Shown in pieces: positions 1 through 3,021 of a DNA stretch of 64,000 nt. The stretch is from Alphaproteobacteria bacterium (GTDB lineage: Bacteria > Pseudomonadota > Alphaproteobacteria > RF32 > CAG-239): positions 1,390 to 65,389 of the forward strand of contig JAFVBL010000021.1 of assembly GCA_017479985.1 (NCBI GenBank), given 5' to 3'. The first letter of the stretch is position 1. Each line of letters opens with the position of its first letter. The notes under the pieces were generated by a model, which saw only the letters and a program-made list of their open reading frames with translations, was not told the origin of the DNA and searched no databases. A program made the translations under genes and the position numbers.

Positions 1-3000
1 TTGACATTTATACATTGACTTATCACCTGCTTGACAAGGTGTAGCGTATGTTTTGCAATGTTCTATGTTTTTCCCTTCCGACGGATAGCCTGAACACGTT
101 GCCACCTTACATTGCACCATAATTTTTTTACCGGACCGACATTGCGGTTTGCTGCTGTCGGTTTCGTATCCCGTCGGACAAGTGGTATAAAATTCCGTGC
201 CGCAATTATGTTCCACACATCTCACCATTTCTTGTTCACCGGACATACACGTATCACCCTCAACCTTATCGTATCCTTGACCGCATTCCGTATAATATCC
301 GCCGCAGGTTTGCGCCGCACACTCTACATACCATTCATTACCGGACTTACATTTATTGCCTGTTTCGACATATCCGCCGGCACAACTTGTTGTATCATAC
401 GGACAAGCCGCCGGGGTAGAGCAAGTATCGCCCGTCCAGCCTTCTTCACAACTGTTAAGCTTATATTTATACCCTTCGCCCGATTGACACCGATCACAAC
501 TTTCGGCTTTTTCCGGACATTGTCCCAAATTATATCCGACACACGGATTTTCGGCACATTTAACATACGTTGTATCGCCGGATTTACAAGTTTGTCCTGT
601 TTCATAAAATCCGACACCGCAATAGGTTTCGGAAAAACCGTCACACGATTTTTCCGTTGCGCAGTCATCGCCTTCCCAACCGTCTTGACAACCATAAGTT
701 CTGTATTTTGCCTTGCCGTCGGTCATACATATTCCGCAGCTGCGTGCATTTGTCGGACATTTATCATACGGATACGGCGGATTGTTGCAATCCGATACGG
801 CACATTCAACATACCGCTGATTGCCGTAATAGCAGTATGCTCCCGTTTCTTCATATCCGTCTGAACGGTCACAAAACGTGTCGCGGAATGTACAGCTTGC
901 ATCGGGTGTGCTGCAATCTTGTCCCGTCCAGCCTGTTTTGCAGCCGGTGATTTTATATCTGACGGTATTTTCACCGGATTGACACTTTTCACACTCACCT
1001 TTGGCATTTGCCGGACATACGGTCAGAGGAAAATCCGAACAATCATTCGGTTTGCACTCTTTATATATATCTTCGCCCGATTGACAGGCGGCACCGGTTT
1101 CGTAATACCCGTCCGCACACGTTACGGTATGGTACGGACAAGACACTTTCTGACATTCCTGATACAATGTGTCTGCTGATTGACAGGTTCTGCCGGTCGG
1201 TTCATAACCTGTTTCGCACGAGGTGGTCGTAAAACTGCATTCACGCGGTTTGCACTCGGTATATTTGATACCGGCGGACCAACAATAATTGCCGGTTTCA
1301 ACATATCCGCCCGTACATTCCAAAGTATTATAGCCGCAAGTTACAGGGGTTGAACAGGTATCTCCTTCCCAACCGTCCTTACAGACGGAAACCTTATATT
1401 TCCAAACAGAATCGGATTTGCACGCGCTACATCTTTCCGCATTGACAGGACACGCCGTCAGGTCATGACCTTCACACGGTATTTCCTGACACTTGACCAG
1501 CAGTTTATCCCCTTCCCAACATTCATCGCCGGCCGATTCGTAACCATTGATACACAAATCTGCCCGAACATAATCACTCGGACAAGTTTCCTCCGTATTA
1601 CAGCCATCTCCGGTCCAACCTTTTTTACATTTATTGCACCGGTATGTTGTTTTGTCGCCGCTCTGACACGATACAAACTCATCGCAATTACCGTCAGGCA
1701 ACTGTTGTAACGGGTATTCGGAGCAATCTCTTTCAACACACATCAGCAACTTTTTGTTGCCTGACATACAGTAATCATTTTCTGCCGGAACATAACCTTT
1801 GCCGCAACTTTCGGAATATCCTTCGCAAGGATCTTCCGTTTCGCAGTCATCACCGACCCAGCCTTCCGCACATTGCGTACATTTTACTTTTTGCACAGGT
1901 TGCTGAGCTTCACGCGTAATACAAATATCATAAAGTAAGCACTTTTCCGGCACACCGCTCAATGTGTATTCCGAGCAATCCTTTATTTCGCACTCAACAT
2001 AAAGTGTATCACCGGATTTACAGGTTTCTCCGGTCGGTACATATCCTTCCGATTCAATGCAAGAAGTTGTCTGATACGCACATTTAACCGGCGTATTGCA
2101 GTCTTCGCCTTTCCAACCCTCAGCGCACTTGTTGCATTTATATTTGTTGTTATCACCGTTGCGGCATATTTCCGATTCGTTTTCCGCGCAATGAGATATG
2201 TATTCTGCCGGAAAATCAAAACCTTCGCACGCTTTCGGTTCGCACTTGACGTATGTTTTATCGCCGGATTTACAGGTATCGGCAACTTCATAACCTTCGC
2301 CGCAAGTTTCATTGGTATAAGCGCAAATCTTTTCTCGCTCACACAAATTGCCCGTCCAACCGTCTTCACAGGCATCGCATCTATATGTTGTCACATCGCC
2401 GCTGCGGCAAGACTCCGGTATGGCACAATGCTCCGGCACAGATGTCAGAGTATATGCCATACAATCCTTTATTTTACATTCATAAAGCATTTGCCCGTCT
2501 TTACGGCAAGTTTTACCTGTTTCGACATAACCGAGAGGACAGCTGACCGCGTAGTTTTCGTCACACTCACCGCTCGACGACGAACCGCCGCCTCCGCCGC
2601 CTCCGCCACCGCCGGCAGCTGCGGCAATCCCCACACCGCCGGCAACAATGGCACCGGCAACAAGCCAACCGGTTGTACTCATACCGCCGGAACTTATACC
2701 GGTCGATGCACCGGAACGCCCGTAACTTGCCGCATACGAACAGCGAGGATTCGGATTTGCACCATATTGCAACAAAGTGTGATATGCACGTGAATTTCCG
2801 TCCGCCAATGCCATACAAACAGCCGTATTTCCTGACGAATCTTCCGCATCAATGGCGGAACCGAGATATTTCAGAGCCGTATAATTTCCGCTTTTGGCAT
2901 AGCCGTAAACACTCCGAGCGTCGGCATACCGAGCCGATGCTGTGCCGCAAATCATTCCCGTTGCCAAAATCATCGTAAATAAGCCAACGGTTTTTATTTT

Positions 3001-3021
3001 ATTCCATAAACCATACGTCAT
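1..3021 (-). CDS. Large secreted/membrane cysteine-rich tandem-repeat protein with an N-terminal ankyrin repeat; 5' partial at the window edge (C-terminus lies beyond position 1)
   Basis: Minus-strand frame is open from the ATG at 3019-3021 to the window start, with no listed stop; plus-strand ORFs here are short antisense artifacts. N-terminus MTYGLWNKIKTVGLFTMILATGMICGTASA looks like a signal peptide. ANK-like segment SGNTAVCMALADGNSRAYHTLLQYGANPN. Hydrophobic GWLVAGAIVAGGVGIAAAAGG followed by a G10S4 linker. Then more than 20 repeats of about 45 aa with CxSGDxxYxxC and CxxCxxGWxGxxC(N/S/E)TP motifs (EGF-like/VSP-like). An alternative upstream ATG lies at 3049-3051. Confidence 0.6.
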   Translation of the reverse strand, partial: MTYGLWNKIKTVGLFTMILATGMICGTASARYADARSVYGYAKSGNYTALKYLGSAIDAEDSSGNTAVCMALADGNSRAYHTLLQYGANPNPRCSYAASYGRSGASTGISSGGMSTTGWLVAGAIVAGGVGIAAAAGGGGGGGGGGSSSSGECDENYAVSCPLGYVETGKTCRKDGQMLYECKIKDCMAYTLTSVPEHCAIPESCRSGDVTTYRCDACEDGWTGNLCEREKICAYTNETCGEGYEVADTCKSGDKTYVKCEPKACEGFDFPAEYISHCAENESEICRNGDNNKYKCNKCAEGWKGEDCNTPVKCAYQTTSCIESEGYVPTGETCKSGDTLYVECEIKDCSEYTLSGVPEKCLLYDICITREAQQPVQKVKCTQCAEGWVGDDCETEDPCEGYSESCGKGYVPAENDYCMSGNKKLLMCVERDCSEYPLQQLPDGNCDEFVSCQSGDKTTYRCNKCKKGWTGDGCNTEETCPSDYVRADLCINGYESAGDECWEGDKLLVKCQEIPCEGHDLTACPVNAERCSACKSDSVWKYKVSVCKDGWEGDTCSTPVTCGYNTLECTGGYVETGNYCWSAGIKYTECKPRECSFTTTSCETGYEPTGRTCQSADTLYQECQKVSCPYHTVTCADGYYETGAACQSGEDIYKECKPNDCSDFPLTVCPANAKGECEKCQSGENTVRYKITGCKTGWTGQDCSTPDASCTFRDTFCDRSDGYEETGAYCYYGNQRYVECAVSDCNNPPYPYDKCPTNARSCGICMTDGKAKYRTYGCQDGWEGDDCATEKSCDGFSETYCGVGFYETGQTCKSGDTTYVKCAENPCVGYNLGQCPEKAESCDRCQSGEGYKYKLNSCEEGWTGDTCSTPAACPYDTTSCAGGYVETGNKCKSGNEWYVECAAQTCGGYYTECGQGYDKVEGDTCMSGEQEMVRCVEHNCGTEFYTTCPTGYETDSSKPQCRSGKKIMVQCKVATCSGYPSEGKNIEHCKTYATPCQAGDKSMYKCQ

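Follow-up and report, generated by a model that had tools for sequence, protein, structure and literature searches.

Type Va autotransporters pass the inner membrane through Sec and have their C-terminal barrel assembled by the beta-barrel assembly machinery (BAM); the passenger emerges C-terminus first and its N-terminus ends most distal. In classical autotransporter adhesins such as pertactin and Ag43 (PF03797/TIGR01414), a Sec signal peptide precedes a very long passenger, which near the barrel is rich in repeats. Proteins of the type V secretion system (T5SS) have low cysteine contents, and their passengers are taken to be cysteine-poor because disulfide-bonded folds in the periplasm block passage through the outer membrane (PMC8151025). 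Only closely spaced cysteines are tolerated in type V passengers, and the chlamydial polymorphic membrane proteins (Pmps), with up to 18 cysteines, are a notable unexplained case (PMC8151025). The stretch of DNA analyzed here, called the window throughout, comprises 64,000 nucleotides of contig JAFVBL010000021.1 of an Alphaproteobacteria bacterium (assembly GCA_017479985.1). Its left end carries the 5' part of a gene that probably encodes a giant, chromosomal type Va autotransporter of an uncultured rumen or gut alphaproteobacterium, a rod of cysteine modules with an ankyrin (ANK) head that would act as a stalk adhesin or surface coat.

The minus-strand frame starts with an ATG at position 3021, with GGAG about 8 nt upstream, and runs to position 1 and past the window edge, as noted in the first-pass annotation, which was made from the sequence alone and reported a frame open for over 3 kb. 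Its 1007 codons form a single open frame, for which the chance probability at the local base composition is about 6e-27. The translation agrees at all positions with residues 1-1007 of NCBI entry MBR1825528.1 (locus tag IJ770_02970; P0001 hereafter), recorded as 'hypothetical protein IJ770_02970, partial [Alphaproteobacteria bacterium]' from a metagenome-assembled genome (MAG); it forms a singleton cluster. The first-pass annotation had proposed obtaining the full gene. The record extends it to 1470 aa, at which point the 3' end is cut off by the end of the 68-kb contig.

A search of 5.8 billion clustered proteins returned 25 relatives. All 24 with an intact N-terminus carry the signal peptide, ANK domain, hydrophobic segment and poly-Gly of the window protein; the remaining one, P0019, begins within the ANK domain. 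The complete relative P0003, 40% identical over 85% of the query, has a C-terminal PF03797 barrel at 75.7 bits. P0047 (2752 aa, 177 cysteines) is 51.5% identical to P0001 and colinear with it over residues 5-1265, and was the second-best other match in a profile search with the cysteine modules described below. It consists of the N-terminal head, cysteine modules to about residue 1690, cysteine-free 'YGM'-type repeats at about 1700-2300, a conserved junction and a C-terminal barrel that matches PF03797 (73.5 bits, cutoff 26) and TIGR01414 (44.8 bits, cutoff 16). L002 from sheep rumen (2510 aa, 180 cysteines) has a barrel 88% identical to that of P0003 (PF03797, 75.1 bits). This C-terminus is common to 25 relatives. 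Pfam gave no matches on full-length P0047, L001 and L002, although their isolated C-termini score 73-75 bits; we suspect the HMMER filters, or the whole-sequence bias correction, on such long repetitive proteins. In GTDB species genomes the N-terminal module is present on 12 complete genes, and the last residue of every one is aromatic (F or Y). P0005 (MBR1825991.1), a paralogue from the same MAG, extends into the region directly ahead of the barrel, where it is cut by the end of its own contig. Because the colinear relative and other full-length relatives end in a PF03797/TIGR01414 barrel, the window gene is very probably the 5' part of a type Va autotransporter of roughly 2,700 aa (about 2,500-2,800). 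The giant surface protein proposed in the first-pass annotation is supported.

Judged by sequence, the closest known kind is the classical autotransporter adhesin, from which the family differs in passenger composition and head module. The Sec signal peptide, the very long passenger and the repeat-rich region near the barrel are alike in both, and full-length relatives of the window protein end in a barrel with an aromatic last residue. The passenger here, however, is an array of cysteine mini-modules rather than a cysteine-poor beta-helix, with 153 cysteines in the partial protein and 177-180 in full-length relatives; it has a conserved ANK/hydrophobic/poly-Gly head, and the barrel of the window gene is predicted from relatives. 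A passenger of about 150-180 cysteines would be a striking outlier, at about ten times the load thought tolerable for the type V route. Pmps are likewise classical autotransporters and the cysteine-rich exception among type V proteins (PMC8151025), but their passengers have up to 18 cysteines compared to more than 150 here, and no homology was detected. Kinship with Pmps was rejected, the GGA[ILV] and FxxN motifs occurring 0 and 0 times in P0001 and 0 and 3 times in P0047. The spacing between successive cysteines in the window protein, with a median of 8 and a maximum of 22 residues, fits the rule that cysteines in type V passengers are closely spaced (PMC8151025).

The modules of the array follow one another in the order (A-B1)x4, A-B2, A-A-A-B2, A-B2, A-B2, A-A-A and a partial B1-like unit (Table 1). 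The more than 20 regularly spaced cysteine repeats of the first-pass annotation were thus recovered, as 22 modules; its description of this part of the gene otherwise stands, but had not separated the two module kinds and had missed the hydrophobic segment at residues 117-136. Cysteine accounts for 11.6% of residues beyond residue 150 of the 1470-aa P0001, where 153 cysteines follow residue 145, so that the passenger's cysteine content is not low. The part encoded in the window holds 107 cysteines, with 8 CxxC motifs among them. Type A occurs in 13 copies of about 30 aa with 4 cysteines and the consensus C-x6-C-xxGY-xETG-xxC-xSG-xxxYxEC; copies were parsed by the spacing C-x5-9-C-x9-13-C-x8-10-C with CxSGxxxYxxC inside. 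Type B occurs in 8 complete copies of about 42 aa with 6 cysteines, ending CxxGWxGxxC-(S/N/E)T(P/E). Four of these (B1) end CxxCxxGWxGxxC and four (B2) end CxxGWxGxxC, and one more B1-like copy is cut at the window edge. At the DNA level the copies have a period of about 237-252 nt and are only 60-80% identical, and the array is therefore old and not recently amplified. Variation in repeat copy number had been raised in the first-pass annotation. Rapid change is not indicated, because the array is colinear in module order and number with the 51.5%-identical P0047; among distant relatives module number does differ, the cysteine region ending near residue 1033 in P0003 and beyond 1470 in P0001. 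Past the window, residues 1008-1470 of P0001 hold a third super-repeat type of about 60 aa (C-x7-C-x15-17-C-x8-10-C-x7-10-C-x2-C-x10-17-C) and include one canonical unit, CVHGSRNGSECSCTGNWSGALC, similar to epidermal growth factor (EGF). Precomputed PF27417 matches are present on relatives P0002, P0003, P0005-7, P0009-12, P0019 and P0022, and not on P0001; P0022 has no A modules. PF27417 seems, from these matches, to cover part of the passenger C-terminal to the cysteine modules rather than the modules themselves.

Table 1. Features of the giant gene at the left end of the window. Nucleotides are window positions; residues are those of P0001.
Feature	Residues	Nucleotides	Strand	Basis
5' part of giant surface-protein gene, 1007 codons		1..3021	-	open frame; 100% match to P0001
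Predicted Sec signal peptide	1-30	2932..3021	-	n-region K8/K10, h-region 11-25, cleavage between TASA and RY
Ankyrin-like head, two repeats	32-95	2737..2928	-	phmmer, family profile, AF2, Foldseek
Variable Ser/Gly-rich spacer	96-116	2674..2736	-	gappy alignments; pLDDT <50
Conserved hydrophobic Gly/Ala-rich segment TGWLVAGAIVAGGVGIAAAA	117-136	2614..2673	-	hydropathy and conservation
G10S4 hinge	137-150	2572..2613	-	the (GCC/GGC)n tract of the first-pass annotation
Array of 22 cysteine modules	153-1007	1..2565	-	Cys-spacing parse; DNA periodicity
Example type-A module, predicted 4-Cys beta-hairpin	314-344	1990..2082	-	AF2 of A-B pair
Other 12 A modules, first six		2476-2565, 2242-2325, 1738-1827, 1489-1584, 1252-1338, 1153-1239	-	Cys spacing
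Other 12 A modules, last six		1054-1140, 802-894, 556-645, 319-405, 217-306, 109-204	-	Cys spacing
Example B1 module, putative 6-Cys divergent EGF-like	349-393	1843..1977	-	hhalign, AF2
Other B1 modules		2341-2463, 2098-2229, 1600-1725	-	Cys spacing
Partial B1-like module		1-96	-	Cys spacing
Example B2 module	516-556	1354..1476	-	B1 fold class; c11+c18 in place of c15+c31
Other B2 modules		913-1041, 661-789, 421-543	-	Cys spacing

No Pfam or NCBIfam family covers any of the cysteine region, NCBIfam has no match on the window protein at all, and Pfam gave no EGF, furin-like or variant-specific surface protein (VSP) match on the whole protein at E up to 1. Single A-B units gave sub-threshold EGF matches confined to the GWxGxxC tail, the best at E 0.0013-0.05 (JAG1-like_EGF2 0.0013, EGF_DL_JAG 0.0025); on the one A-B unit with a listed score, EGF_PEAR1L reached 14.1 bits compared to a cutoff of 37.5. 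In relatives P0009, P0011-13, L006, L007 and L014 the slot behind the A module often holds a shorter unit, C-x10-C-x-C-xxGWxGxxC. Twenty-three of these short units were compared with Pfam, and EGF_Teneurin matched 18, EGF_DL_JAG 17 and EGF_2 12; all three models pass threshold at the whole-protein level in P0012 and L014. The B profile aligns with these short EGF units by hhalign at 94.8% probability (E 5e-8, 26 columns). Against PDB sequences the best match of the A-B profile was a Notch1 EGF domain, in Cys-for-Cys register and at a non-significant E of 0.56. AlphaFold2 (AF2) modeled the A-B pair at a predicted local distance difference test score (pLDDT) of 94.9 as two long beta-hairpins with strands at 18-27 and 30-37; Foldseek found no significant match for this model in PDB, Jagged and DLL appearing at E 4-9.

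Ninety-nine distinct B-type domains, nearly full-length and taken from 45 proteins, served to measure the coupling between cysteines. Cysteines c3, c21, c34 and c43 are essentially invariant. The variable ones occur as c11+c18 in 61 domains and c15+c31 in 20, with neither pair in 13 and a mixture in 5; Fisher tests, uncorrected for shared ancestry, gave 4e-23 and 1e-17, and the cysteine count is even in 93 of the 99. In the Notch register c15 and c31 correspond to EGF C2 and C4, a disulfide-bonded pair in EGF domains, and it is because of this correspondence that one canonical EGF bond would appear to be kept in B1, relocated in B2 or dropped. The cysteines of B modules are apparently structural disulfide partners; their order and the 8-residue C5-C6 spacing are compatible with 1-3, 2-4, 5-6 bonding, the bonds being predicted only. 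B thus appears to be a divergent EGF-like domain. Like the EGF arrays of Notch, Delta, Jagged and teneurin (EGF_2, EGF_DL_JAG, EGF_Teneurin), B modules end C-x2-G-W-x-G-x2-C, with 8 residues between the last cysteines, have a cysteine order that allows the EGF pairing and are set in tandem as a rod, and relatives carry Pfam-positive EGF units. Unlike those arrays, the window's B modules fail Pfam thresholds, have a long C1-C2 loop and longer hairpin strands (11 residues, AF2), carry CxxC where EGF has CxC, and alternate with the non-EGF module A.

Type A has neither a Pfam relative nor a PDB sequence relative. Its profile shows a weak likeness (74% over 15 columns) to the CxSGxxxYxC hairpin in the middle of B. 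A reading of A modules as half-EGF domains was rejected, the match to EGF reaching just 48% probability over 12 columns, and on the AF2 model we treat type A as an orphan 4-Cys beta-hairpin module. The EGF-like repeats of the first-pass annotation can therefore be kept for the B modules, on the hhalign match and the c15+c31 coupling, but not for the 13 A modules, and no Pfam EGF threshold is passed. Three elements appear to be new, with no Pfam or NCBIfam model and no describing paper found: the 4-Cys beta-hairpin of type A, an EGF-like variant from bacteria in which a disulfide would take either of two positions, and an ANK/hydrophobic/poly-Gly head common to cysteine-rich autotransporters and S8 subtilases.

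The head occupies residues 1-150. Its putative signal peptide, also recognized in the first-pass annotation, shows the canonical n-h-c pattern as read from the sequence; cleavage is predicted between ASA and R, alanine at -1 is invariant in 18 homologues, and AF2 places a helix at residues 6-21. The ankyrin repeat called there, GNTAVCMALADGNSRAYHTLLQYGANPN, occupies residues 64-91 (nt 2749-2832) and was recovered at the level of the fold. Pfam Ank_2 scores 15.2 bits on the head, under its cutoff of 27.3. By phmmer against PDB sequences the head matches a designed ankyrin repeat protein (DARPin) at E 1e-6, and a profile of family N-termini matches 17 Pfam-annotated ANK proteins at E 2e-7 to 8e-4. 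The AF2 model, built with 18 homologues, has four helices in residues 35-85, with ten-residue blocks over 31-90 averaging pLDDT 80-90, and ANK proteins make up all of its 50 highest-ranking Foldseek matches in PDB. The best of these is 9iq8, 'ankyrin-like protein AnkB' (probability 1.0, 33-35% identity over 65-75 columns, E 0.01), which differs from the head in being a free-standing small protein and not part of an autotransporter. Residues 32-95 are accordingly modeled as an ankyrin fold of about two repeats. Because C69 and C94 are invariant in the 18-homologue alignment, the ANK domain seems to be extracytoplasmic and disulfide-stabilized.

Behind the ANK domain and a spacer lies the hydrophobic Gly/Ala segment, which is kept in all family members; its Kyte-Doolittle 19-mer mean is 1.87, compared to 1.64 for the signal peptide, and AF2 gives it pLDDT <40. 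The poly-Gly/Ser linker of the first-pass annotation follows as the hinge, with Gly runs of 4-11 residues in homologues. Tandem Repeats Finder (TRF) places a period-3 repeat at 2585-2614 (77% matches). The first-pass annotation had proposed a potential slippage site here, for which the tract is a poor candidate, since its Gly codons are a mixture of GGC, GGT and GGA and any change would be in frame. A stop-transfer anchor at residues 117-136 would make autotransport impossible unless the segment were translocated or transiently held; we infer that it must be translocated, or must serve as a transient tether in the inner membrane. Both behaviors have precedents. The N-terminal GxxxG hydrophobic segment of VacA is exported by an autotransporter and inserts in target membranes, and the extended signal peptides (ESPR) of some autotransporters transiently hold the precursor at the inner membrane. 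These too are hydrophobic, Gly-rich N-terminal elements of autotransporter precursors, but the segment here lies about 90 residues past a normal signal peptide, behind an ANK domain and before poly-Gly, and the likeness is by description only. It is possible, if rather doubtful, that the signal peptide, the disulfide-stabilized ANK domain, the marginally hydrophobic Gly/Ala helix and the poly-Gly together form a device that works in secretion or in target-membrane insertion, with passengers of 150-180 cysteines exported. While the barrel is still unassembled, such a device would hold the precursor at the inner membrane or in another way maintain its competence for secretion; or else, at the tip of a stalk that by a rough estimate may exceed 100 nm, it would insert in a target membrane.

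For the protein as a whole we propose the following route. The N-terminal signal peptide would bring the precursor through Sec, and a 12-stranded C-terminal beta-barrel, encoded beyond the contig end, would insert in the outer membrane, the passenger being threaded out with its C-terminal part leading. Seen from the cell surface, the passenger would then consist, in order, of the Gly-rich 'YGM'-repeat region by the barrel, the long rod built from A (orphan 4-Cys beta-hairpin) and B (divergent 6-Cys EGF-like) modules, and a distal head of poly-Gly hinge, hydrophobic Gly/Ala segment and two-repeat ankyrin domain. The coupling of the cysteines indicates that all bonds would be local and within modules. 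Bonds of this kind would make the rod stiff and protease-resistant, and its units small enough for the outer-membrane pore: disulfide-stapled hairpins of about 30-45 residues might be narrow enough to pass oxidized, or might be oxidized only outside. The exported rod would form a stalk of which the 22 window modules span tens of nm (a rough estimate), and which, as a stalk adhesin or surface coat, would hold the ANK head out toward a partner, be it the host, a protist or another microbe. ANK repeats and EGF arrays serve in protein-protein interaction and as spacers, so that the most economical role is that of an adhesin or surface coat. The stalk-adhesin function, the mode of secretion competence and the role of the hydrophobic/poly-Gly element are offered as hypotheses. 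If passengers of 150-180 cysteines are indeed exported, type V secretion tolerates heavily disulfide-bonded cargo or has a dedicated solution for it, which would contradict a working rule of the field and of surface-display engineering. A natural family with 150-180 cysteines in strictly local pairs would be a ready-made test of type V size and folding limits and could guide autotransporter-based display of disulfide-rich cargo. On the basis of MAG sequences and predictions, the family would also stand for the surface structure predicted to dominate in Alphaproteobacteria of rumen and gut, which are poorly known.

A profile of the A-B unit, searched against 1.84 billion cluster representatives, matched only 154 proteins at E up to 1e-3, in agreement with the first-pass view that such modules are rare in bacteria. 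All members with a source name are Alphaproteobacteria MAGs. The parts were tallied over the top 150 representatives: the N-terminal module is present in 49, the barrel type in 38, both in 33 (leaving 16 N-module representatives without a barrel), and neither is present in 96. Of those 16, at least P0001 and P0005 are truncated by contig ends and several others end in an aromatic residue. The 96 proteins with neither part (among P0056-P0190) have a median length of 372 aa and about 9% cysteine and hold B-like modules; 91 have Met as their first residue, and the N-termini inspected resemble signal peptides. A CxxxPxCxxLGY-type motif opens many of these small proteins. Scans of genome and metagenome contigs with the single protein gave no close relative. 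With a small alignment of the N-terminal module, a scan of GTDB species genomes gave 14 loci, 13 of them in MAGs labeled Alphaproteobacteria or 'proteobacterium'. These MAGs come from the rumen or abomasum of sheep, roe deer and cattle and from the gut of humans (Hadza, Nepal). The remaining locus, L010, is on a contig that was binned as Bacteroidaceae but probably belongs to an alphaproteobacterium, with a frameshift or a pseudogene at this locus. Its 284-aa open reading frame (ORF) runs through this head into the beginning of an S8 domain and then meets a stop codon.

The N-terminal module also heads S8 subtilase proteins (P0021-25, L008, L011-14), whose C-terminal regions are homologous among themselves and end in an aromatic residue or F-N. 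Some of them, L014 for example, also carry Pfam-positive EGF units, and L008, the sole S8 protein tested, has no PF03797 match. Because the same head is found on cysteine-rich autotransporters and on S8 subtilase proteins, it appears to be a family-wide device independent of cargo. The NCBI names retrieved for the cysteine-rich members are all 'hypothetical protein', except for two fragments in the P0047 cluster, called 'autotransporter outer membrane beta-barrel domain-containing protein' and 'S-layer family protein'. In the literature on cysteine-rich or EGF-like autotransporters and on autotransporters of rumen Alphaproteobacteria we found no description of this family.

Several points weigh against the autotransporter proposed here. 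No module of the window protein reaches any Pfam threshold. The disulfides are deduced from cysteine coupling and parity, the coupling tests ignore shared ancestry, and the rumen is strongly reducing. The 3' end of the window gene lies beyond the contig, so its barrel is inferred from relatives, colinearity between P0001 and P0047 stops at residue 1265, and the rest of the gene was not recovered in two metagenome scans. Finally, a 20-residue stretch that is hydrophobic on the Kyte-Doolittle scale, placed behind a cleaved signal peptide, could be a stop-transfer anchor. Truncation by the contig end and the break in colinearity would allow the window gene to share its N-terminal half with autotransporters and to end otherwise, for example as a released or S-layer-type protein that leaves the cell by another route. 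The 96 of the top 150 B-module proteins that lack both head and barrel, and the fragment in the P0047 cluster named 'S-layer family protein', point the same way. That fragment, however, belongs to the same 90% cluster as a full-length barrel protein, all 12 complete genes with the ANK/hydrophobic/poly-Gly module end in an aromatic residue, and 33 of the 49 N-module representatives also have the barrel, at least P0001 and P0005 among the other 16 being contig-truncated; we hold an end of another kind to be very unlikely. More room is left for the hydrophobic segment as a real inner-membrane anchor, with the ANK domain staying periplasmic or the precursor transiently tethered. Its Kyte-Doolittle mean of 1.87 is above the usual transmembrane threshold, the best structural match of the head was deposited as 'ankyrin-like protein AnkB', and Pseudomonas AnkB is periplasmic; transient tethering is also known for autotransporters with ESPR. 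A permanent stop-transfer, on the other hand, would strand the passenger and barrel in the cytoplasm, on biological scales the hydrophobicity of the Gly/Ala-rich segment is only marginal (by the Hessa scale roughly estimated at about +1.3 kcal/mol), and VacA does export its N-terminal GxxxG segment, so that an anchor is on the whole unlikely.

Two further readings concern the cysteines and the eukaryote-like look of the modules. In the anoxic rumen the cysteines might stay reduced and serve in metal binding or as a thiol/redox buffer coat. Giardia VSPs are reported to bind metal ions via their cysteines, a single CxxC motif is present per B module, the 64 kb of the window showed no Dsb gene, and the carriers live in rumen and gut. 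But reduced thiols would not account for 93 of 99 B-type domains having even cysteine counts, nor for variable cysteines being gained and lost as pairs, one of which is EGF C2-C4; per module there is no His and no second CxxC to finish a tetrahedral metal site, and AF2 gives compact beta-hairpin modules at pLDDT 95 without a ligand. We give this reading little credence. The first-pass annotation had likened the repeats to protist VSPs and their CxxC repeats and had called such modules characteristic of effectors or adhesins in intracellular symbionts and pathogens, and one may accordingly picture a eukaryote-like effector or variant surface antigen diversified by slippage or copy number. ANK and EGF-like modules are typical of eukaryotes, the cysteine content of 11.6% and the presence of 8 CxxC motifs in the window part speak for it, the same MAG holds at least two paralogues, and module number varies among distant relatives (to about residue 1033 in P0003 and beyond 1470 in P0001). 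Giardia VSPs do resemble the window protein as the surface coat of a gut anaerobe with about 11-12% cysteine and CxxC motifs. They differ in family, no VSP, furin-like or other CxxC family matching at E up to 1, in that only 8 of the motifs occur among 107 cysteines, and in their C-terminus, the relatives here ending in a barrel and not in a transmembrane segment with a CRGKA tail; VSP kinship is thus not borne out. A cleavable predicted signal peptide and the relatives' barrel point to the bacterial surface rather than injection into a host cell. Slippage in a tract of mixed Gly codons would in any case be in frame, module DNA copies are 60-80% identical, and the array is colinear with a 51.5%-identical relative. 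With core housekeeping genes as neighbors and rumen and gut MAGs as carriers, nothing points to an effector or to intracellular life, and a diversified effector or antigen of this kind is highly improbable.

The giant gene sits in the core chromosome. It is separated by a gap of 130 nt from an upstream Sir2-family gene, and its neighbors further include a MurG-like glycosyltransferase, hfq, hflX and ftsZ-ftsA-ftsQ-murB-ftsW; ATP synthase genes, clpB and ftsH are also found in the window. The GC content of 1..3021 is similar to that of the remaining window. A promoter and terminator scan of the 130-nt gap gave no candidates, and an Rfam scan of the entire window no matches. Plus-strand ORFs overlapping 112-2978 were rejected as genes and judged to be shadows of the long minus-strand frame.

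When window neighbors were compared with the related loci, the only common gene was one for a leucine-rich repeat (LRR)-like protein, shared with L002 only. In the window this 485-aa protein (7640-9097, minus strand) consists of about 19 tandem 21-aa LRR-like repeats (LTTLEGAPKEVGGDFxCSNNQ), without a signal peptide and without a Pfam match at 1e-5; the homologue at L002 5353-6021 (minus strand) lies 1.9 kb upstream of the related autotransporter gene from sheep rumen. Two large minus-strand ORFs have no Pfam family: one of 893 aa at 31922-34603, and one of 1161 aa at 55014-58499, which is charged and coiled-coil-like with a hydrophobic Gly/Ala-rich middle part. GC content falls to 0.37 at about 22000-24000 and to 0.35 at about 26000-28000, compared to about 0.43-0.46 elsewhere in the window. 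These low-GC regions contain a GT2 glycosyltransferase gene (22398-23444) and a sulfatase-family PF00884 gene (26385-27911), and may represent an envelope-modification islet.

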